Shown piece after piece: positions 34,576-44,643 of a stretch of DNA of 64,000 nucleotides (position 1 is its first letter; every line of letters begins with the position of its first letter). The notes beneath the pieces are model-generated. The model did no database searches. It was not told the DNA's origin and was given only the letters and a program-made list of their open reading frames with translations. The position numbers and the translations under genes were made by a program. The stretch is from an uncultured Bacteroidota bacterium (lineage in GTDB: Bacteria; Bacteroidota; Bacteroidia; Bacteroidales; P3), in assembly GCA_902777005.1 (NCBI GenBank), contig CACYSB010000003.1:10614-74613 (forward strand). The letters are read 5' to 3'.

Positions 34576-34605
34576 AAAATATTTTGCCCATATAAAAAAA
34601 CTTTG

Positions 34606-34613
34606 TATCTTTG
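34606..34613 (+). promoter_or_regulatory. -7 promoter box (TATCTTTG) driving the islet leader
   Basis: TAnnTTTG match, about 285 nt upstream of the methyltransferase ATG. Confidence 0.5.
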
Positions 34614-34619
34614 CACTCC

Positions 34620-34865
34620 GAAAGACATAGGCTTATCGAGAGTGGATAAGCCATATAATATTAACAAAGCATTACTATTATTTCGCGTGACCGAAAAACC
34701 CGGCAAAGTTTCACGGAGATAAACACGATTAATAATAGTGAGGTTCCGATTAGGAATCTGTAATATCATAGTAGAATGCTCGCTTTATGTGAGCTTCTTA
34801 GGATATTACAGGTCTCCTTGCCGGGTTGCCTGGGTCCGCGAATAAGAAGCTCTCTTCTTTTTCGC
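34620..34865 (+). ncRNA. highly structured leader or ncRNA of unknown class
   Basis: Hand-found helices: 34630-37/34645-52 (8 bp); 34674-82/34731-39 (9 bp) plus 34686-89/34724-27; 34758-67/34802-11 (10 bp) plus 34752-55/34815-18; 34774-83/34889-97-type inner hairpin at 34774-83/34789-97. A 10-bp pseudoknot pairs 34697-34706 with 34818-34827. The terminal hairpin is 34838-34865. Confidence 0.4.
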
Positions 34866-34898
34866 ACGATTGATAGCAATGCACAAAAGTTATCAATC

Positions 34899-35981
34899 AT
34901 GCCTGACAATGTAAATCTTCACGCAGCAATGCGTGCAAAAAAAGATGAGTTCTATACTCAACTTGTAGATATAGAAAACGAGCTGAAACACTACCGAGAA
35001 CACTTTCGGGGTAAGACGGTGCTATGCAACTGCGACGACCCTCGCGTCAGCAATTTCTTCCACTATTTTAGTTATAACTTTGAGCAGTTGGGTTTAAAGA
35101 AACTTATCACTACCTGCTACAAGAACCAAGAACGAGACCTATTTAGCCAGCATGATTCTGAACGTGCTATTTTGCTCGAATACACAGGCGACCACAACGG
35201 CAACCGTATACCTGATCCTGAAGAAATAGGCATCAATTATCTACAGGGCGATGGTGACTTCCGTTCCGCTGAATGTATAGAACTGCTAAAGCAGGCTGAC
35301 ATCATTGTCACGAACCCGCCATTCTCATTGTTCCGAGAATATGTTGCACAACTTATTGAATACAATAAAAGATTTGTCATTATTGGCAATCAGAATGCCA
35401 TAACAAATAAAGACTTCTTTCCTTTAATAAGAGACAATAAGGTATGGATGGGTGCAAGTATTCATAGCGGAGATAGAGAGTTTGGTGTACCCGACGATTA
35501 CCCACTTAATGCTGCAGGATGGAGGCAAGATGAAAAAGGCAATAAGTTTATTAGAGTAAAAGGTGTTCGTTGGTTCACAAATCTTGATTACAAAGAAAGA
35601 CATGAAGATTTAATACTTTACAAAAACTATTCTCTAGAAGAGTATCCAAAATACGACAACTATGATGCAATAAATGTCAATAAGACATCAGATATTCCAA
35701 TGGATTATTATGGTGCAATGGGAGTACCTATCACTTTTATGGACAAATATAACCCTGAGCAATTCGAAATCATCGGAATATGTGCCGGGAATAGCAGACT
35801 GAACAAGTTTTACGGAGATATTACATATACACCTCATCCCGAAGACAGAGGCGGTTGTGCAGTATTAAATGGACAGCGTGTATATAGCCGCATCCTTATC
35901 CGACGTCGACGCCGAACAATTCCCTATACCGTAGGCGATGAGAATCCACTGCCAATAGCTGCAGAAACAGATAATAATTAA
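34899..35981 (+). CDS. EcoRI-methylase-family N6-adenine DNA methyltransferase
   Basis: KKDEFYTQLVDIENEL...VLCNCDDPRVSNFFHYF...IIVTNPPFSLF (NPPF). Start at ATG 34899, because the track start at 34776 lies inside the structured leader. Confidence 0.8.
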   Translation: MPDNVNLHAAMRAKKDEFYTQLVDIENELKHYREHFRGKTVLCNCDDPRVSNFFHYFSYNFEQLGLKKLITTCYKNQERDLFSQHDSERAILLEYTGDHNGNRIPDPEEIGINYLQGDGDFRSAECIELLKQADIIVTNPPFSLFREYVAQLIEYNKRFVIIGNQNAITNKDFFPLIRDNKVWMGASIHSGDREFGVPDDYPLNAAGWRQDEKGNKFIRVKGVRWFTNLDYKERHEDLILYKNYSLEEYPKYDNYDAINVNKTSDIPMDYYGAMGVPITFMDKYNPEQFEIIGICAGNSRLNKFYGDITYTPHPEDRGGCAVLNGQRVYSRILIRRRRRTIPYTVGDENPLPIAAETDNN

Positions 35982-35985
35982 AACC

Positions 35986-37068
35986 ATGGAGATAAAACTA
36001 CACCAAATAAAGGTCCGCGACCTTGTGAAAGACTACTGCGACAATGCAGAAAACGGCGTCCGTGCCTATAGCGGACAACTCGACGTGCGCCCACCATACC
36101 AACGCGAGTTTGTATACAAAGACAAGCAACGCGACGCCGTGATTGAGACCCTCACGCAGGGATTTCCTCTCAATGTGATGTACTGGGCAGTGCGCGAAGA
36201 CGGCACCTATGAGATTATCGATGGCCAACAGCGCACCATCAGCATCTGCCAGTATGTGACGGGCGACTTTGCCTATATGTTTCGCTACTTCCACAACCTC
36301 GCCGACGACGAGCAGCAGCAGATACTCGATTACGAGTTGCAGGTGTATCTATGCTCTGGCACCGACAGCGAAAAGCTAAGGTGGTTCAAGACAATTAACA
36401 TCGCCGGCGAGGAATTGACCGACCAGGAACTGCGCAACGCCGTCTATGCAGGTAGCTGGCTGGCCGACGCCAAGCGTTACTTCAGCAAAGGCAATTGTGC
36501 CGCCTACAACATGGCCAGCAAGTATGTGAGCGGTGAGGTGAACCGTCAGGCTTACCTCGAGACTGCTATTCGCTGGATTAGTGAGGGTAACATAGAGACC
36601 TATATGGCAAAGCATCAGCACGACGCTGGCGCCGTGGCGCTATGGAACCACTTTAGCAATGTCATCAGTTGGGTAAAGGCCATATTCCCAAAATACCGCA
36701 AAGAGATGAAAGGTGTTGACTGGGGTACGCTGTACCGTCTACACCATGACAGAGATCTCGATGCACAGAAACTGGAGACTGAAGTAGGACGTCTCATGCA
36801 AGATAGCGACGTGCAGCGCAAACGTGGCATCTACGAGTATGTACTCGATTATGACGAGAGGCACCTCGACCTACGAGCTTTCGATGACAACACTAAAAGA
36901 GAAGTCTATGAACGGCAACTTGGTATTTGCCCTGTATGTGGAAAACATTTCGCCATCGAGCATATGGAGGCAGACCATATCACCCCATGGTGTCAAGGTG
37001 GCCGTACAACAGCTGATAACTGCCAAATGCTTTGCAAAGAGTGTAATAGACGCAAGTCGGGCAAATAG
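35986..37068 (+). CDS. DUF262 (ParB-like NTPase/nuclease) protein with C-terminal HNH endonuclease
   Basis: PPYQREFVY and IIDGQQRTISI are DUF262 motifs. CPVCG...ADHITPW...NCQMLCKECNRRKSG is the HNH domain. Confidence 0.8.
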   Translation: MEIKLHQIKVRDLVKDYCDNAENGVRAYSGQLDVRPPYQREFVYKDKQRDAVIETLTQGFPLNVMYWAVREDGTYEIIDGQQRTISICQYVTGDFAYMFRYFHNLADDEQQQILDYELQVYLCSGTDSEKLRWFKTINIAGEELTDQELRNAVYAGSWLADAKRYFSKGNCAAYNMASKYVSGEVNRQAYLETAIRWISEGNIETYMAKHQHDAGAVALWNHFSNVISWVKAIFPKYRKEMKGVDWGTLYRLHHDRDLDAQKLETEVGRLMQDSDVQRKRGIYEYVLDYDERHLDLRAFDDNTKREVYERQLGICPVCGKHFAIEHMEADHITPWCQGGRTTADNCQMLCKECNRRKSGK

Positions 37069-37138
37069 ACGATTGCCCGAAGTGTTAAAGTTTAGTTAAA
37101 AAAGGCTCTTCCGCCCGGAAGGGCCTTATATTATATAT

Positions 37139-37172
37139 GCGCCGCTTTTCTTGTGGGGAGGAAAAGCGGCGC
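37139..37172. terminator. bidirectional hairpin terminator
   Basis: Perfect 12-bp stem GCGCCGCTTTTC / GAAAAGCGGCGC with a 10-nt loop, between convergent genes. Confidence 0.6.
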
Positions 37173-37211
37173 GAGGGTTCTTTGAAATGCTGAGAAGATT
37201 GGTCAAATAAG

Positions 37212-38072
37212 TTATTGTGCACCGAAATGGGCTTTGAGCTGGTCGAGCTTGCGCTGCTTGCGGCGGTCCCAGATTTCGGTGATGAGCTTCTTGGTGCTGA
37301 GGGGGAAGTCGGACTTCATCATCCAGTCGTAGTAGGAGGGTTCCTGCTCAAAGACTTCGACGACGGTCTTGCCCTTGTGCTTGCCGAAGTTGAAGACCTC
37401 GCGGTGCTTGGCGTCGTAGCCTATGTGGCCCACGAGGTCGGCCCACTGGCTGTTGGCGGTGAAGCGGCTCAGGGCTGCGATGTCGTTGACGACGGGCTGG
37501 CTCACCTTGCCGGAGCGGTCCTTGTAGTCGACACCCTGGTAGCGGTCGAGCTGCGCCTTGAGGACCTCATAGGTGGCTATGGTGTCGGCTGCAGCGGAAT
37601 GGGCATTCTCGAGATCTTTCTGGCAGTAGAACTTGTAGGCGGCCACGAGGGTGCGCTGTTCCATCTGGTGGAAGATGTTCTGCACGTCGACGAGTCGGCG
37701 GCAGCGGAGGTCGAAGTCGATGCCTGCGCGGAGGAACTCCTCGACGAGCAGCGGCACGTCGAACTTGTTGCTGTTATATCCGGCGAGGTCGGCGTCGCCG
37801 ATGTACTCCAGCAGGCTGGGGGCCAGCTCGCGGAATGTGGGCTTGTCGGCCACGTCGGCGTCGGTGATGCCGTGCACGGCGGTGGTAACCTCGGGGATGT
37901 GGATGGTCTTGCCCTCGGCGTCGGCGGGGCGCACGCGCTCCACGCGGGTGTCGGTGGTGCCGTCTGGCATCACCTTGTGGAGGCATATCTCAACGATATG
38001 GTCGTGACCTACCTGCACGCCGGTGGTCTCAAGGTCAAAGAAGATTATGGGTTTGGTGAGGTTGAGCTCCAT
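37212..38072 (-). CDS. DnaQ-like 3'-5' exonuclease domain protein
   Basis: FFDLETTG is Exo I and HSAAADT is Exo III. Confidence 0.8.
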   Translation of the reverse strand: MELNLTKPIIFFDLETTGVQVGHDHIVEICLHKVMPDGTTDTRVERVRPADAEGKTIHIPEVTTAVHGITDADVADKPTFRELAPSLLEYIGDADLAGYNSNKFDVPLLVEEFLRAGIDFDLRCRRLVDVQNIFHQMEQRTLVAAYKFYCQKDLENAHSAAADTIATYEVLKAQLDRYQGVDYKDRSGKVSQPVVNDIAALSRFTANSQWADLVGHIGYDAKHREVFNFGKHKGKTVVEVFEQEPSYYDWMMKSDFPLSTKKLITEIWDRRKQRKLDQLKAHFGAQ

Positions 38073-39393: not shown

Positions 39394-40377
39394 TTATGAT
39401 ATTTCGGCAAAATATTTCATAAACTGGGTACGCATGGCGACGGAAGCCTTGTCGGTGGGCTGCACGGCCAGCTTGCCACGGAAGGCGGCGATGTTTTCGT
39501 ATCCCTTTTTCTGCATCCATGCCTGCAAGCCTGCGTTGAGTTCCTTGAGGGTATCGATGCCGTTCTTATATAGGCAGCTCACCACCTGCACGCTGCTGGC
39601 TCCGGCGAGGAGCATCTTCACCACATCGTCGGCGGTGTAGACACCCGTGGAGGCTGATATGTCGCAGCGCATCTTCTTGCTCATCAGAGCCACCCAGCGG
39701 AGCGTTTTGTACATATCCTCATGGGTTGACAGGTAACTGGCGTTCTTCATAGTCTCACTATCGGTGTCTATATCCACCTCGACACTCTTATTGAACATGG
39801 TGACACCCTGTATACCCATCCAGCTTATCTGCTGGAGTGTTTTGGCCATGTCGGTGAAGTAAGTGCCCAACTTGATACTGATAGGTATGGTGATAGACTT
39901 GCGCAACGTATTGATAATCTGCGTATAGGTACGCTCGATATCATCGGCGGAGAGGTTGGTCTCATAGGGCAGAATAGCCATATTGAGTTCCAGCGCGTCA
40001 CAGCCGGAATCCTGGAAACGCTTGGCATAGTTGAGCCAGTTCTCATAAGAGAAGCAGTTGATGCTGCCAATCACGGGGATGGTCAGCTTGCGCTTGGCTT
40101 CACGGATCATGCCGAAGTGCTTCTCCAGCGAGTCGTCGGCCACATGCATGGCTATGTACTCGTAACTTACACCGTAGTTGTCGGTGGGGGCAAACATGTG
40201 GGTGTTGCGCTTTATGTCGTGGATAATTTGCTCCTCGAAGACCGACTTCAGCACCACGGCGCCGGCACCAGCCTGTTCCATCTGCACCATTTTGTCGACA
40301 TCAGCGGTCAGTCCGCAGCTTCCCACCACGATGGGGCTCTTCAATTCAAGACCCAAATATTTGGTTTTTGTATCCAT
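39394..40377 (-). CDS. dihydroorotate dehydrogenase-like protein
   Basis: YLGLELKSPIVVGSCGLT...AGAGAVVLKSVFEEQ. A minus-strand TACTTTTG box lies at about 40412-40419. Confidence 0.8.
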   Translation of the reverse strand: MDTKTKYLGLELKSPIVVGSCGLTADVDKMVQMEQAGAGAVVLKSVFEEQIIHDIKRNTHMFAPTDNYGVSYEYIAMHVADDSLEKHFGMIREAKRKLTIPVIGSINCFSYENWLNYAKRFQDSGCDALELNMAILPYETNLSADDIERTYTQIINTLRKSITIPISIKLGTYFTDMAKTLQQISWMGIQGVTMFNKSVEVDIDTDSETMKNASYLSTHEDMYKTLRWVALMSKKMRCDISASTGVYTADDVVKMLLAGASSVQVVSCLYKNGIDTLKELNAGLQAWMQKKGYENIAAFRGKLAVQPTDKASVAMRTQFMKYFAEIS

Positions 40378-40511
40378 AATTGTTCGATTTTTTTCCTATC
40401 AATAATCTTTGCAAAAGTATGTAAAATATATTTATAAAAAAAATATTTCTTTCCATTTTTTAATATTTATTTCATACACCACTGATAATCAGCGCACACA
40501 AAAATCATCAC

Positions 40512-40546
40512 AACCTGTAACCTGTAACCTGTAACCTGTAACCTTT
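40512..40546 (+). repeat. heptanucleotide tandem array (AACCTGT x4, then AACCTTT)
   Basis: Read directly. Lies between divergent promoters. Confidence 0.95.
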
Positions 40547-40622
40547 CACTTTTTTCACTTCCATTTCATAAAAAAGTTGTATTTTTGCACTCGTTTTTAA
40601 AGAAGAAAATAAAGATTCAGAT

Positions 40623-41297
40623 ATGGAAAAACAGATTGAAGAAAAGAACACCGAGATGGGCAGCGTAATCACCCGCTCGGAGGAATTCATCCAGAAGAAC
40701 CAGAAGACCATCATCATTTGCGTGGTGGCAGTTCTCATTGTCGTGCTCGCCATCTTTGGCCTGCGCAAGTGGTACTTCCAACCCCGCGAGGTACGCGCCG
40801 CAGAGGAGATGTTCGCCGCCGAGCAGTGGTTCGCCCAGGGCGACTACGAGAAAGCCCTCAACGGCGACGACACCTTCCGTGGTTTCCTTGGTGTCATCGA
40901 CAGCTACAGCTGCACCAAGGCTGGCAACCTGGCCAAGTACTATGCCGGTATGGCCAACCTGCGCATGGGCAACTATGACGAGGCCGCCAAATGGCTCGGC
41001 AAGTACAGCGGCAAGGATCTCTTTACCGCTCCCCTCGCCGTTATGGCCGAGGGCGATGCTGAGATAGAACTCGGCAACACTGAGAAAGCAGTGAACCTCT
41101 ACCTCAAAGCCGCCAAGATGAACGACAACTACATCACCTCGCCCTCCGCTTGGTTCAAAGCAGGTCTGGTTTATCTGACCATGGGTAACAACAGCAAAGC
41201 CCTCGACTGCTTCAAGAACGTCAAGCAGAACTACCCTGAAGCCACCGAGTGGCAGGATATTGACAAGTATATCGCCCTTGCCGAAGCTGCTGAATAA
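40623..41297 (+). CDS. membrane-anchored TPR-like protein
   Basis: N-terminal TM segment. A TATTTTTG box lies at about 40573-40580. Confidence 0.6.
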   Translation: MEKQIEEKNTEMGSVITRSEEFIQKNQKTIIICVVAVLIVVLAIFGLRKWYFQPREVRAAEEMFAAEQWFAQGDYEKALNGDDTFRGFLGVIDSYSCTKAGNLAKYYAGMANLRMGNYDEAAKWLGKYSGKDLFTAPLAVMAEGDAEIELGNTEKAVNLYLKAAKMNDNYITSPSAWFKAGLVYLTMGNNSKALDCFKNVKQNYPEATEWQDIDKYIALAEAAE

Positions 41298-42042: not shown

Positions 42043-43248
42043 TTACTTGTTGAAAGCGTCCACGCTCTCTTTAATGAGCTGGAAAGTAGCCTCGATGTCG
42101 TTGTCCAGACCCATGCTGAAGCGGATGAGGCCTTCGCTCATACCCATCTCCTTCTGGATGTCCTCAGGAACCTCGCTCGACGTGCTCTTGCCGCTGTTGC
42201 TGAAGAGGGTCTTGAAGTAGCCAAGGCTGACGGCCAGGTAGCCGACACCCTTCTGCTGCATCAGCTCCATGATCTTGCTGGCGCGGTCGGCAGTGCCCAT
42301 GTCGATGCTGATCATGCCGCCGAAGCCATAACCCTCGTTCATCATGCTGCAGAACAACTCGTAGTCAGGATGCTCGGGCAGACCGGGGTAGTTGTATTTG
42401 AAGCCAACCTCTTTGAAGCGTTTGGCCAAGTACATGGCGTTCTCGCCGTGCTTCTTCATGCGGATGTGGAGCGTATGGAGATTCTTGTTGATGGAGGCGC
42501 TGCGCATGGGATCCAGGACGGGGCCGAGGAGCATGCAGGTACCGTTGTTGACATCAATCAGGCTGTTGATGTACTCGGCGCTGCCGCAGATGGCACCGGC
42601 CACGCAGTCGTTAGTACCGTTGATGTACTTGGTCATTGAGTAGACAGTGACGTCGGCACCCAGACGGCAGGGGCTGAAAATCATCGGGGTGAAGGTGTTG
42701 TCGACGATGAGTTTGGCACCGGCGGCATGGGCCATCTTGCTCAGCTCGGGAATATTGGCGATGCGGAGCAGAGGATTGTTCATGGTCTCGGTGTAGACAA
42801 CTTTGGTATTGGGATGCTCGGCGAGAGCCTTCTTAACGGCGTCAAGGTTCTGCATGTTCACAAAGGTAGTGTTCACGTTGAACTTCTTGAGGTAGTTGGC
42901 CATGAAGGCGAAGGTGCCACCATAGGTGGTCATGCTGGCCACGATGTGGTCGCCGGCGTTGACTTCGTGCAGCAAGGCGCTGGTGATGGCGGCAAGGCCG
43001 GAACCAGTGACCCAAGCCATCTCGGTGCCTTCCATTGCTGCGAGGCGCTGGCAGAGGGCGAGGTTGGAGGGGTTCCAGTGGCGGCTGTAGAGGAAGTAAC
43101 CCTCGGTCTCACCGTGGAAAGTCTCGGTCATGAGGTGTGCCTCGGGGAAGGTGAATGTGGCGCTGTCGCAGATTGCGGGGTTAACGCCACGGTTGGCATC
43201 GCGGCCATCAATACGCTGAATAGCGGTTGCGGGATCAAATTTGCTCAT
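42043..43248 (-). CDS. Cys/Met-metabolism PLP-dependent enzyme (gamma-lyase/synthase family)
   Basis: SMTKYINGT contains the PLP lysine. The fold-type I trans-sulfuration family pattern is present. The exact reaction is not assignable. Confidence 0.8.
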   Translation of the reverse strand: MSKFDPATAIQRIDGRDANRGVNPAICDSATFTFPEAHLMTETFHGETEGYFLYSRHWNPSNLALCQRLAAMEGTEMAWVTGSGLAAITSALLHEVNAGDHIVASMTTYGGTFAFMANYLKKFNVNTTFVNMQNLDAVKKALAEHPNTKVVYTETMNNPLLRIANIPELSKMAHAAGAKLIVDNTFTPMIFSPCRLGADVTVYSMTKYINGTNDCVAGAICGSAEYINSLIDVNNGTCMLLGPVLDPMRSASINKNLHTLHIRMKKHGENAMYLAKRFKEVGFKYNYPGLPEHPDYELFCSMMNEGYGFGGMISIDMGTADRASKIMELMQQKGVGYLAVSLGYFKTLFSNSGKSTSSEVPEDIQKEMGMSEGLIRFSMGLDNDIEATFQLIKESVDAFNK

Positions 43249-43340
43249 GTTTGTCTGTTATTTAGTTTTTTTACTTATTAAAATTTGGAACTGCAAAAAT
43301 ACAACATATTTTCGACATGACAAAAAAAATGTTTTATCGC

Positions 43341-43481
43341 CTCCCCGACAATTCTACGACACCCCTCACTATCCTCTACGACTGTTCTACGGTTGTTTAC
43401 CGCCTGTTCGCCGGTTTATTACGTTAAACAACCGGTGAACAAGCGGAGAACAGGCGGAGAGGAGTCGGAGAGATAGCGGAG
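43341..43481 (+). repeat. CTCCG/CGGAG palindromic element, copy 3
   Basis: Shares CGACTGTTCTACGGTTGTTTA with copy 2 (about 22 nt identical). The right half is AACCGGTGAACAAGCGGAGAACAGGCGGAGAGGAGTCGGAGAG. Confidence 0.7.
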
Positions 43482-43554
43482 TGCCACTGGCGCTCCTGTG
43501 GAGAGACTCTGTTTTAAAAATATTCTTTTTTATGCTTTTTGCGAAATTATTTGT

Positions 43555-43562
43555 ATATTTGC
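43555..43562 (+). promoter_or_regulatory. -7 promoter box (TATATTTG) for the RND operon
   Basis: TAnnTTTG match 38 nt upstream of the ATG at 43600. Confidence 0.5.
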
Positions 43563-43599
43563 ATTTTAAAATTGAAACCTTAACTAAATATATGAGACT

Positions 43600-44643
43600 A
43601 TGAAACAAACCATTACCATTATTGCGGCGGTGGCGATGCTTCTGTGGTCGTGCGGGGGCAAGCGTAATGCCGATACGGGGTGGAGCGATTCAACACCCGT
43701 GAAAATCATGGTTATCGACAACATGGACGCCGCTACGGAGCGCAACTATGTGGGCGACGTCTCCTCGGAGAAAGATATCAGCCTGTCGTTCACTTTCGGC
43801 GGCACCATCACCAACGTGTACGTCAGCAACGGACAGTATGTCACCAAGGGGCAGGTGATAGCCACCATCGACAGTGCGTCGGCGGCGAGCCTGCACGCCA
43901 CCGCTGTGGCGACCTTGCGCCAGGCCGAGGATGCCTACCGCAGGCTGGAGCCCGTCTACAAGGAGGGCGGCCTGAGCGAGGTGCGCTGGATGCAGATGGT
44001 GACGGACCTTGAGAAAGCACGCCAGGCGGAGCTGAGCAGCCGCCGCCGTGTGGACGATTGCACCATGCGCGCCCCCTTCAGCGGCACCGTGTCGTGCTCA
44101 GCCCACCACGTGGGCGAAGAGCTGCGCCCGGGCGAGGTGTACTGCAAGATACTTGACATGAACAAGCTGCGAGTCTCCTTCTCAGTGCCTGAGCAGGAGA
44201 TGACCCGCATAGCCATAGGCGGGGCGGCGAAGGCTGTGGTGCCGTCGCTCGACAACCGCGAGCTGAAGCTGCGCATCAGCGACAAGAGCCTTATTGCAAA
44301 CCCGCTGGGCCACACCTACCGTGTGCATGCCTCGGTCGTGGAGGGCGACGTGAAGGACCTGCTGCCGGACATGGTGACCAAGGTGACCGTGGCCAGCGAG
44401 GTGAAAAACGATGACAGCGAAGAGCGCCGCGTGGTGATGCCGTCGAACTGCATACACACGATGCCGCAGGGCCAGATAGTGTGGGTGATAGAGAACGGCG
44501 CCGCCAAGCAGCGTACCGTGACGGTGGGCGACTTTGTGAAGAGAGGCGTGCTGATCACCGACGGCCTGACGCAGGGCGACACCGTGATTACCGAAGGCCA
44601 CCAGAAGATGTACACTGGAGCAAAGGTGAAAGTAATTGAATAA
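43600..44643 (+). CDS. RND efflux periplasmic adaptor subunit
   Basis: Lipoprotein-like N-terminus with a barrel-sandwich/coiled-coil pattern. First gene of a three-gene operon. Confidence 0.85.
   Translation: MKQTITIIAAVAMLLWSCGGKRNADTGWSDSTPVKIMVIDNMDAATERNYVGDVSSEKDISLSFTFGGTITNVYVSNGQYVTKGQVIATIDSASAASLHATAVATLRQAEDAYRRLEPVYKEGGLSEVRWMQMVTDLEKARQAELSSRRRVDDCTMRAPFSGTVSCSAHHVGEELRPGEVYCKILDMNKLRVSFSVPEQEMTRIAIGGAAKAVVPSLDNRELKLRISDKSLIANPLGHTYRVHASVVEGDVKDLLPDMVTKVTVASEVKNDDSEERRVVMPSNCIHTMPQGQIVWVIENGAAKQRTVTVGDFVKRGVLITDGLTQGDTVITEGHQKMYTGAKVKVIE

Follow-up and report, generated by a model that had tools for sequence, protein, structure and literature searches.

Type II restriction–modification (RM) systems of the HNH (beta-beta-alpha-metal) kind, such as KpnI, Hpy99I, NlaIII and PacI, have separate, adjacent methyltransferase and endonuclease genes, and their nuclease carries a C-terminal HNH motif of the form CxxC...DH...N...CxxC. 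The GmrSD, BrxU and SspE families combine an N-terminal DUF262 domain bearing the motif DGQQR with a C-terminal His-Me-finger nuclease (DUF1524), in proteins of about 550-700 amino acids (aa). Known controls of RM operons are C (controller) proteins, autoregulation by the methyltransferase and antisense RNAs, as in EcoRI or Eco29kI; to our knowledge, control of RM systems by a structured leader has not been described so far. Here we analyse an AT-rich islet in a 64,000-nucleotide (nt) stretch of DNA (the window) from an uncultured Bacteroidota bacterium (contig CACYSB010000003.1, a rumen metagenome scaffold). The islet holds a gene for an EcoRI-family adenine methyltransferase, a gene for a DUF262-HNH nuclease and, in front of both, a long leader. 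The leader is a real, conserved and covarying RNA structure. The gene pair is best read from its sequence, with good confidence, as a Type II RM system of a known and common kind, and the islet as a whole is probably a Type II RM operon expressed through an RNA-switch leader. Its parts are:

34586-37221, plus strand: strain-specific islet, comprising promoter, leader, methyltransferase gene, nuclease gene and terminators (blastn synteny breakpoints, gene content and GC content)
34583-34613, plus strand: Bacteroidetes-type promoter, with a -33 TTTG at 34583-34586 and the -7 motif TATCTTTG at 34606-34613
34654-34898, plus strand: conserved structured leader RNA (nhmmer E = 9e-51, covariation, fold z = -7.5)
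34899-35981, plus strand: EcoRI-family N6-adenine DNA methyltransferase, 360 aa (Pfam PF13651, PADLOC MTase_II, motif IV NPPF)
35986-37068, plus strand: nuclease, DUF262/ParB-Srx-like plus HNH, 360 aa (Pfam, PADLOC, Foldseek)

The gene pair resembles the Type II HNH systems in its adjacent genes, in the C-terminal HNH motif of the nuclease, in the match of both proteins to PADLOC Type II models, and in a mobile, patchy distribution that includes plasmids. It is unlike the textbook HNH restriction enzymes in the N-terminal ParB/DUF262 domain with DGQQR; the classifications of 2008 and 2017 describe no such domain. As a ParB-like NTP-binding domain fused to HNH, it may bring with it a need for nucleotides. 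This domain, followed by a C-terminal His-Me-finger nuclease, is what the islet nuclease shares with GmrSD, BrxU and SspE, from which it differs in its length of 360 aa (the BrxU structure chain has 587 residues), in having a PF01844 HNH domain rather than DUF1524, and in the methyltransferase fixed upstream of it in 77 of 80 loci. The methyltransferase matches the M.EcoRI family (PF13651) over its full length (496 bits), NPPF motif included, whereas its partner is not an EcoRI-like PD-(D/E)XK enzyme and GAATTC is not notably avoided in carriers. The leader is built like riboswitch-type attenuators, with long-range helices that covary within a large conserved domain, a terminator hairpin followed by a U tract, a covarying alternative helix over the terminator and a start-codon hairpin. 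It departs from them as follows: its switch strand lies in an apical hairpin rather than in P1, it matches no Rfam 15 family, and the genes downstream are RM genes. With the known RM controls it shares a presumed purpose, limiting or timing a potentially toxic enzyme pair; unlike them, it is a cis-acting structured 5' leader common to unrelated RM types, single-polypeptide enzymes included.

A conserved and covarying leader RNA

A blastn query made of the 323 nt that separate the upstream gene from the ATG of the methyltransferase gene matches, unexpectedly, upstream of the methyltransferase in many loci whose proteins share only 60-70% identity with those of the window. Relatives of the nuclease are encoded in 447 stretches from GTDB species representatives, and the best 80 of these 447 loci were examined. 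In 52 of the 80, a profile search finds one full-length sense copy of the leader, which stops at the start codon of the methyltransferase gene; all 52 loci are of Bacteroidales type, with none in other phyla, and the window contains one copy only. Overall, the leader is conserved in more than 130 loci, with 120 distinct sequences, between which insertions and deletions are not multiples of three and compensatory changes are visible. A more divergent copy, L069:469-671 in the metagenome-assembled genome (MAG) of a Paludibacter sp., is detected by the larger profile only (E = 2e-6). The family probably extends past the finds of the first profile.

The leader folds with a minimum free energy of -89.8 kcal/mol (34655-34905, z = -7.5), and a divergent copy (locus L008) has the same architecture (z = -6.3). 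The structure model was obtained by voting over single-sequence folds together with explicit pair counts; RNAalifold on the MAFFT alignment recovered only part of it. Pair counts were made on MAFFT alignments not fitted to any structure and were compared with 500 shuffles. In the 120 distinct leaders, 94.1% of the cells of the 45 pairs tested are paired, versus 34-45% when the strands are slid, and 32 pairs show compensatory changes; double-change cells number 394, versus 123 +/- 8 in the shuffles, none of which (0/500) reaches the observed value. An alignment of 53 sequences gives similar figures over 43 pairs (92% of cells paired versus 38-45% slid; 34 pairs compensatory; 243 double-change cells versus 73 +/- 10 shuffled; 0/500 shuffles reach). 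The structure belongs to the sense RNA, because G-U pairs are frequent on the plus strand. The elements of the leader are:

34630-34652, plus strand: hairpin GGCTTATC...GATAAGCC in the variable 5' part (hairpin search; not conserved in other loci)
34669-34683, plus strand: near-invariant 5' box GCATTA(G)CTATTATT, nearly complementary to the loop and 5' strand of P8 (invariant columns in alignments A1, A2 and A4)
34683-34690 with 34834-34841, plus strand: helix P1 (compensatory changes in 5 of 6 pairs)
34697-34705 with 34819-34827, plus strand: helix P2 (compensatory changes in 9 of 9 pairs)
Inside P2, plus strand: P3, hairpin P4 (34743-34758) and arm P5 (34758-34811) (minimum-free-energy fold)
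34776-34794, plus strand: apical hairpin P6, made of strand X (AUGCUCGC) and the switch strand Y (GUGAGC, 34789-34794) (96% paired)
34845-34863, plus strand: terminator-like hairpin P7, AGAAG CUCU CUUCU followed by a U run (P7 pairs covary)
34864-34902, plus strand: hairpin P8, GAUUGAUAG N11 UUAUCAAUC (inverted repeat I9, fold and covariation)

The tail after P7 is U-rich in 84% of the sequences. P8 is 95.7-97.6% paired, with the compensatory variants GGAUAAUGG/CUGUUAUCC; in the window it extends, GCA pairing with the UGC of the AUG start, so that the start codon at 34899 would be occluded. The 5' half and loop of P7 (X', about 34848-34854) repeat the sequence of strand X, and Y can therefore pair with either X or X'. 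The alternative helix Y:X' is 94.8% paired, versus 26-61% when slid, with 87 double-change cells versus 13.5 +/- 3.1 in shuffles. It overlaps the P7 stem and is thus mutually exclusive with the terminator. An unbiased scan over all column pairs returned only P1, P2, P6 and Y:X'. In median duplex energy, X:Y (P6) reaches -15.1 kcal/mol, Y:X' -16.6, the P7 hairpin -7.4 and P8 -13.4, and the duplex of the 5' box with the P8 5' strand and loop has a median of -12.6, versus -5.2 kcal/mol for shuffled partners. Terminator, antiterminator, anti-antiterminator and a hairpin occluding the start codon together give the leader, as predicted from these sequences, the layout of a riboswitch-like attenuator. 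RNA control of the pair, which the first-pass annotation of the window had suggested, is strongly supported and extended by the conservation, covariation and alternative helices of the leader, present as it is upstream of homologous pairs.

A further complementarity involves the box: CUAUUAUU (34674-34689) is complementary to a conserved AAUAAUAG (34731-34738, within 34724-34739) in an internal loop of the leader (inverted repeat I5). It could form a pseudoknot or a third alternative pairing.

The leader of the window matches none of the 4227 families of Rfam 15 (E <= 5), nor do those of eight other leader loci (E <= 1); the best score in the window, Histone3 with 20.6 bits versus a gathering cut-off of 34, is a chance match. 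As far as Rfam 15 and literature searches show, this is an undescribed RNA family. When IMG/VR was scanned for the motif of the 5' box, the first 120 matches included no copy of it, only chance matches.

Transcription of the leader

The -33 TTTG lies 19 nt 5' of the -7 motif, which itself occupies exactly the position where a promoter had been annotated. In 88 of 125 homologous loci, versus 8.6 +/- 2.7 in shuffles, a TAnnTTTG motif precedes the conserved box by at most 160 nt, and across most loci it lies 45-91 nt 5' of the box. Since the motif is upstream of it, the box is transcribed and the whole 5' untranslated region measures about 280-330 nt; in the window it runs from about 34620 to 34898 (about 280-285 nt), in agreement with the structured untranslated region of about 285 nt described earlier.

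The leader precedes unrelated genes

Metagenome contigs were scanned with the 5' box and the first bases of P1, and the counts given here are of the 120 matches listed. They include at least 82 full-length leaders, and each time a gene starts 0-16 nt past the end of the leader. The genes that follow are:

EcoRI-family methyltransferase, then DUF262-HNH nuclease where the contig allows: 60-61
MmeI-family enzyme: 3
812-aa enzyme with an NPPY motif: 3
5-methylcytosine methyltransferase, then R.HaeIII: 2
Type ISP enzyme: 1
211-aa lipoprotein, then outer membrane protein (OMP) barrel gene: 4
555-aa lipoprotein: 1
Family-2 glycosyltransferase: 1
DUF2334 protein: 1

RM genes, single-polypeptide enzymes among them, make up about 86% of the identified cargo. 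In gut and rumen Bacteroidales, the leader is thus fused to four RM gene kinds besides the EcoRI-family/DUF262-HNH pair, as well as to a few surface-protein genes. Single-polypeptide RM enzymes pose no problem of methylating first and restricting later, which makes a timer that puts methyltransferase before nuclease less likely; conditional or dosage control is the more likely role.

One of the metagenome contigs (L204, OMBD01002651.1, 3106 bp) has nothing on it but the leader, the methyltransferase and nuclease genes and an open reading frame (ORF) of 149 aa without a Pfam match. It is circularly permuted, with identical 19-nt ends, and could represent a circular element of 3.1 kb or else an artefact of the assembly.

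The same data bear on whether the leader acts on the genes behind it at all. It might instead be an independent gene for a small RNA of about 200 nt that ends at P7 and has a function of its own, an element for self-cleavage or processing, or a structured single-stranded DNA site by which cassettes move. In favour of this, a promoter-like motif of its own comes with it, as does a terminator-like hairpin followed by a U tract; it is portable, preceding at least nine gene types; the islet has neither repeats nor a recombinase; and the contig just described looks circular. Against this, the end of the leader is always followed, 0-16 nt on, by a start codon in the same orientation, with P8 abutting or covering the AUG, and its covarying antiterminator overlaps the terminator as in expression platforms. 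Its G-U pairs fit only a sense-strand RNA, it matches no known ribozyme or other Rfam family, and the IMG/VR matches examined hold no copy. We therefore regard these alternatives as unlikely and retain a cis-acting leader.

The gene pair

The methyltransferase matches EcoRI_methylase (PF13651) from profile position 1 to 344 of 345 (E = 8.9e-149, 495.9 bits against a cut-off of 26.4) and carries motif IV, NPPF, at residues 139-142. Its match to PADLOC MTase_II (PDLC03297) has E = 1e-129, and a sequence search of the PDB gave no match. The nuclease gene begins 4 nt past the methyltransferase stop codon. Residues 33-154 of its product form a GmrSD_N/DUF262 domain (PF03235, E = 5e-20), with DGQQR at 79-83, and residues 315-358 a zinc-finger HNH domain (PF01844, E = 2e-13) with CPVC at 315, DH at 330-331, N345 and CKEC at 350; Pfam finds no DUF1524 (PF07510) in the C-terminus. 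The DGQQR and HNH motif residues are invariant across 40 nuclease homologues. The whole of PADLOC REase_II (PDLC03418, profile 1-372 of 372) matches the nuclease at E = 2.3e-134. The PADLOC RM models are presumably derived from REBASE. The PDB sequence search with the nuclease returned HNH relatives only, the BrxU structure 7p9k being negligible (E = 0.49). With a poor structural model of the nuclease, Foldseek gave weak matches, to ParB-CDP, Noc and sulfiredoxin for the N-terminus and to Gme HNH and McrA for the C-terminus, which are consistent with the domain assignment. The domains and the 4-nt spacing are those of the first-pass annotation. Neither the ORF table nor Pfam shows a C-protein gene or a helix-turn-helix extension in the islet.

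In 77 of the 80 loci, an EcoRI-family methyltransferase is encoded just upstream of the nuclease on the same strand, and the two genes often overlap or are a few nucleotides apart; contig ends account for two of the exceptions, and one other locus for the third. The 80 loci come from Bacteroidales, Flavobacteriia, Neisseria perflava, Kingella, Sphingomonas, a Bordetella-labelled MAG, Sulfurovum, Helicobacteraceae, Planctomycetes, Anaerolineae and Gastranaerophilales, and across these distant groups the nucleases are still 64-69% identical. The pair, with the same annotated neighbour, also occurs on plasmids of many genera (among them Aeromonas, Sulfitobacter, Mammaliicoccus, Gordonia, Variovorax and Lactobacillus relatives), and it is rare in phages. 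The nuclease family comprises at least 8000 clusters at 90% identity. The top matches among those listed (77-93% identical) bear only the public name 'DUF262 domain-containing protein', and at source the homologues from Neisseria, Flavobacterium and Sulfurovum are called no more than 'DUF262' or 'HNH endonuclease'. From the sequence of the window, the two genes had been taken for an unconventional module, on the ground that DUF262-HNH proteins are not classical partners of a methyltransferase. This does not hold: the partnership recurs in many phyla and on plasmids, and the unconventional reading lacks support because both proteins match, full length, models of a catalogued Type II system.

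The main alternative for the nuclease is that it is modification-dependent (Type IV, GmrSD/BrxU-like) or accessory, with the methyltransferase independent of it or a decoy. Its N-terminus matches Pfam GmrSD_N and carries the nucleotide-binding motif DGQQR, it has weak PADLOC matches to NsnA, PD-T4-2_A and mREase_IV and Foldseek matches to ParB and sulfiredoxin folds, and reviews portray DUF262 nucleases as modification-dependent or modification-sensing. However, the order and strand of methyltransferase and nuclease are strict across phyla, small plasmids included; the Type II model matches the nuclease over its full length, whereas the PADLOC Type IV model reaches only 3e-5, on the HNH part alone; and the protein is a 360-aa enzyme with a classical zinc-finger HNH rather than DUF1524. 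A nuclease that required methylation would, next to an active adenine methyltransferase, be self-destructive and attack its own host. We thus consider a modification-dependent enzyme very improbable and prefer a Type II pair, in which the nuclease would restrict unmethylated DNA.

That the methyltransferase starts at ATG 34776 (401 aa), or that the AUG of strand X opens an attenuating leader peptide, is hardly credible: the frame is open from 34776 in the window, public gene calls use the 401-aa ORF, and this AUG stands in an A/U-rich context in 108 of 120 leaders, but leader indels are not multiples of three, ORFs from the AUG run for 3-51 codons with stops spread over 24 alignment columns, a scatter similar to that of the other two frames, and the Pfam match begins at residue 6 of the 360-aa form. 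With no conserved reading frame from this AUG, classical leader-peptide attenuation is unlikely and the 401-aa call over-extended; its 41 extra codons (34776-34898) fall in the conserved non-coding leader, from P6 to P8. The start codon supported by the sequence is ATG 34899.

CATATG is the most depleted palindromic hexamer in the window (8 observed versus 17 expected) and in carrier loci (34 versus 166 in 52 Bacteroidales loci; 37 versus 61 in 28 loci of other taxa). These counts come from carrier loci alone, and the depletion was rejected as proof of the site; CATATG as recognition site is only a lead. GATC, at 44 observed versus 221 expected in the window, was discarded as a candidate, since proteobacterial carriers show no depletion, as were ATGCAT, GAATTC and GTAC-core sites, whose depletion is not notable. 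CTAG is also rare in the window (18 versus 100).

The operon is a mosaic. Its nuclease is 93% identical to that of locus L001, whereas the L001 methyltransferase is only 69% identical, and the closest methyltransferases (82-89%) are paired with nucleases only 63-69% identical (a comparison that includes L037, L264 and L272). These identities, together with GC contents of 0.40 and 0.51 for the two genes, suggest that methyltransferase and nuclease modules are shuffled among isospecific systems.

In about ten loci, a Fic-domain gene lies between the methyltransferase and nuclease genes: HTH_17 plus Fic in L013 (5021-5947), L017, L019, L022 and L036, and DUF4172 plus Fic in L041 (4878-5984) and L046. 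Elsewhere, the two genes are separated by a small lipoprotein gene (a few loci) or by an insertion sequence element (L077).

A model for the switch

We propose that both genes are transcribed from the one Bacteroidetes promoter through the leader, an RNA that would regulate them in cis as a switch. Adenine methylation by the EcoRI-family enzyme would fall in a site that the ParB/DUF262-HNH enzyme would cut when unmethylated. By default, P6 (X with Y) would form and leave the P7 terminator free, and most transcripts would stop before the methyltransferase gene. A putative effector, which may be a small ligand, a protein or an RNA, would occupy X, whereupon Y would pair with X' inside P7; this antiterminator would block P7, and RNA polymerase would read through. 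Pairing of the invariant 5' box with the 5' strand of P8 would open P8, which covers the start codon. Within this scheme, it is our conjecture that an effector exists, that the switch works in this direction and that the box pairs with P8, and we judge the specific switch logic about as likely to be right as wrong.

Several observations run counter to this picture of a Type II operon behind an RNA switch. On the RNA side, the P7 (-3.3) and Y:X' (-7.0 kcal/mol) of the window itself are weaker than the family median. Y:X' would be a pseudoknot if P1 and P2 stayed formed, and the two partners of the proposed box:P8 pairing are both invariant and thus show no covariation. Taking the structure from single-sequence folds of the same sequences inflates the percentage paired, not the double-change counts, and about 9% of the leaders among the matches listed precede genes other than RM genes. 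On the protein side, DUF262 domains are best known from modification-dependent or modification-sensing nucleases (GmrSD, BrxU, SspE), and literature searches on DUF262, HNH, Type II, PF13651 and DGQQR turned up no described DUF262-HNH Type II enzyme. The middle of the nuclease (about 155-300) is without an assigned domain, and its AlphaFold model is poor (pLDDT, the predicted local distance difference test, 65.9), built from a shallow alignment of homologues of at least 76% identity only.

A wider reading, which we put forward tentatively and hold to be possible rather than probable, is that the leader is a new riboswitch class or factor-responsive attenuator through which, in Bacteroidales of the gut and rumen, a single signal gates many RM systems within a regulon for defence and the cell surface. 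If this is true, the signal gates both transcription and translation of unrelated RM systems (Type II, MmeI-type and Type ISP) and of some surface lipoprotein and glycosyltransferase genes, a not-yet-described way of turning restriction on and off. The gene pair only adds a member to a very common family, although naming the DUF262-HNH family as a Type II nuclease would better annotate thousands of genomes; the leader is the more important find. A large, covarying 5' RNA switch common to five unrelated kinds of RM gene would add a new level of control. It suggests that a signal lets Bacteroidales tune or phase the restriction barrier, with a bearing on how phages infect and genes move in the communities of gut and rumen.

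The islet and its site

Collinearity with the sister-strain locus L324 (96-98% DNA identity by blastn) ends at 34585 and restarts at 37222. The first-pass annotation had recognized the AT-rich segment but given it as 34590-37172; because of these synteny breakpoints, its limits become 34586-37221. At exactly the same site, L324 holds a 2640-bp cassette (L324:6852-9491) in place of the 2636-bp islet, encoding an extracytoplasmic function (ECF) sigma factor, a 67-aa protein and a 425-aa OMP-like protein, and the exonucleases beyond are 98% identical. The GC content of the islet is 0.447, against 0.61 in the left flank and 0.567 in the right flank, which bears out its AT-rich character. By part, it is 0.40 in the leader, 0.40 in the methyltransferase gene and 0.51 in the nuclease gene, and the profile falls from about 0.60 in the flanks to 0.36-0.43 over 34600-36000 before rising to about 0.50-0.53 over 36000-37100.

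Between the PD40/OmpA-like gene and the RNase_T exonuclease gene lies a hypervariable hotspot (34576-37221 in the window), which in related strains is occupied by cassettes of ECF sigma factor, anti-sigma factor and OMP genes. Other cargo, never the RM pair, fills the same gap in L325, a more distant relative, and in the ten strains L328-L337, which belong to another close lineage; among relatives, this cargo includes sigma cassettes and DUF6266, LRR, WG_beta_rep and Flg_new_2 genes. The genes flanking the islet in the window are shared by none of about 200 other loci that bear the pair or the leader. The islet is one of many alternative cassettes at a recombination hotspot and was presumably acquired horizontally. 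A search for direct or inverted repeats at its ends found none, and its ORFs include no recombinase gene, in line with what had been reported for it; exchange of cassettes by homologous recombination in the conserved flanks is the most likely mechanism.

Two further features lie inside the right end of the islet:

37102-37127, unstranded: GC-rich hairpin (sequence and hairpin search)
37138-37173, unstranded: GC-rich hairpin (sequence and hairpin search)

Strong hairpins had been taken to bound the islet on this side; they are present, and the end itself moves beyond them to 37221. By their sequence, both would end the methyltransferase–nuclease operon, and the first, with a T run after it on the minus strand, could also terminate the convergent exonuclease gene. 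The GC-rich window has two more short AT-rich dips, at 40200-40800 and 43200-43600 (GC content about 0.38-0.39), the first of which coincides with an intergenic region between divergent genes.

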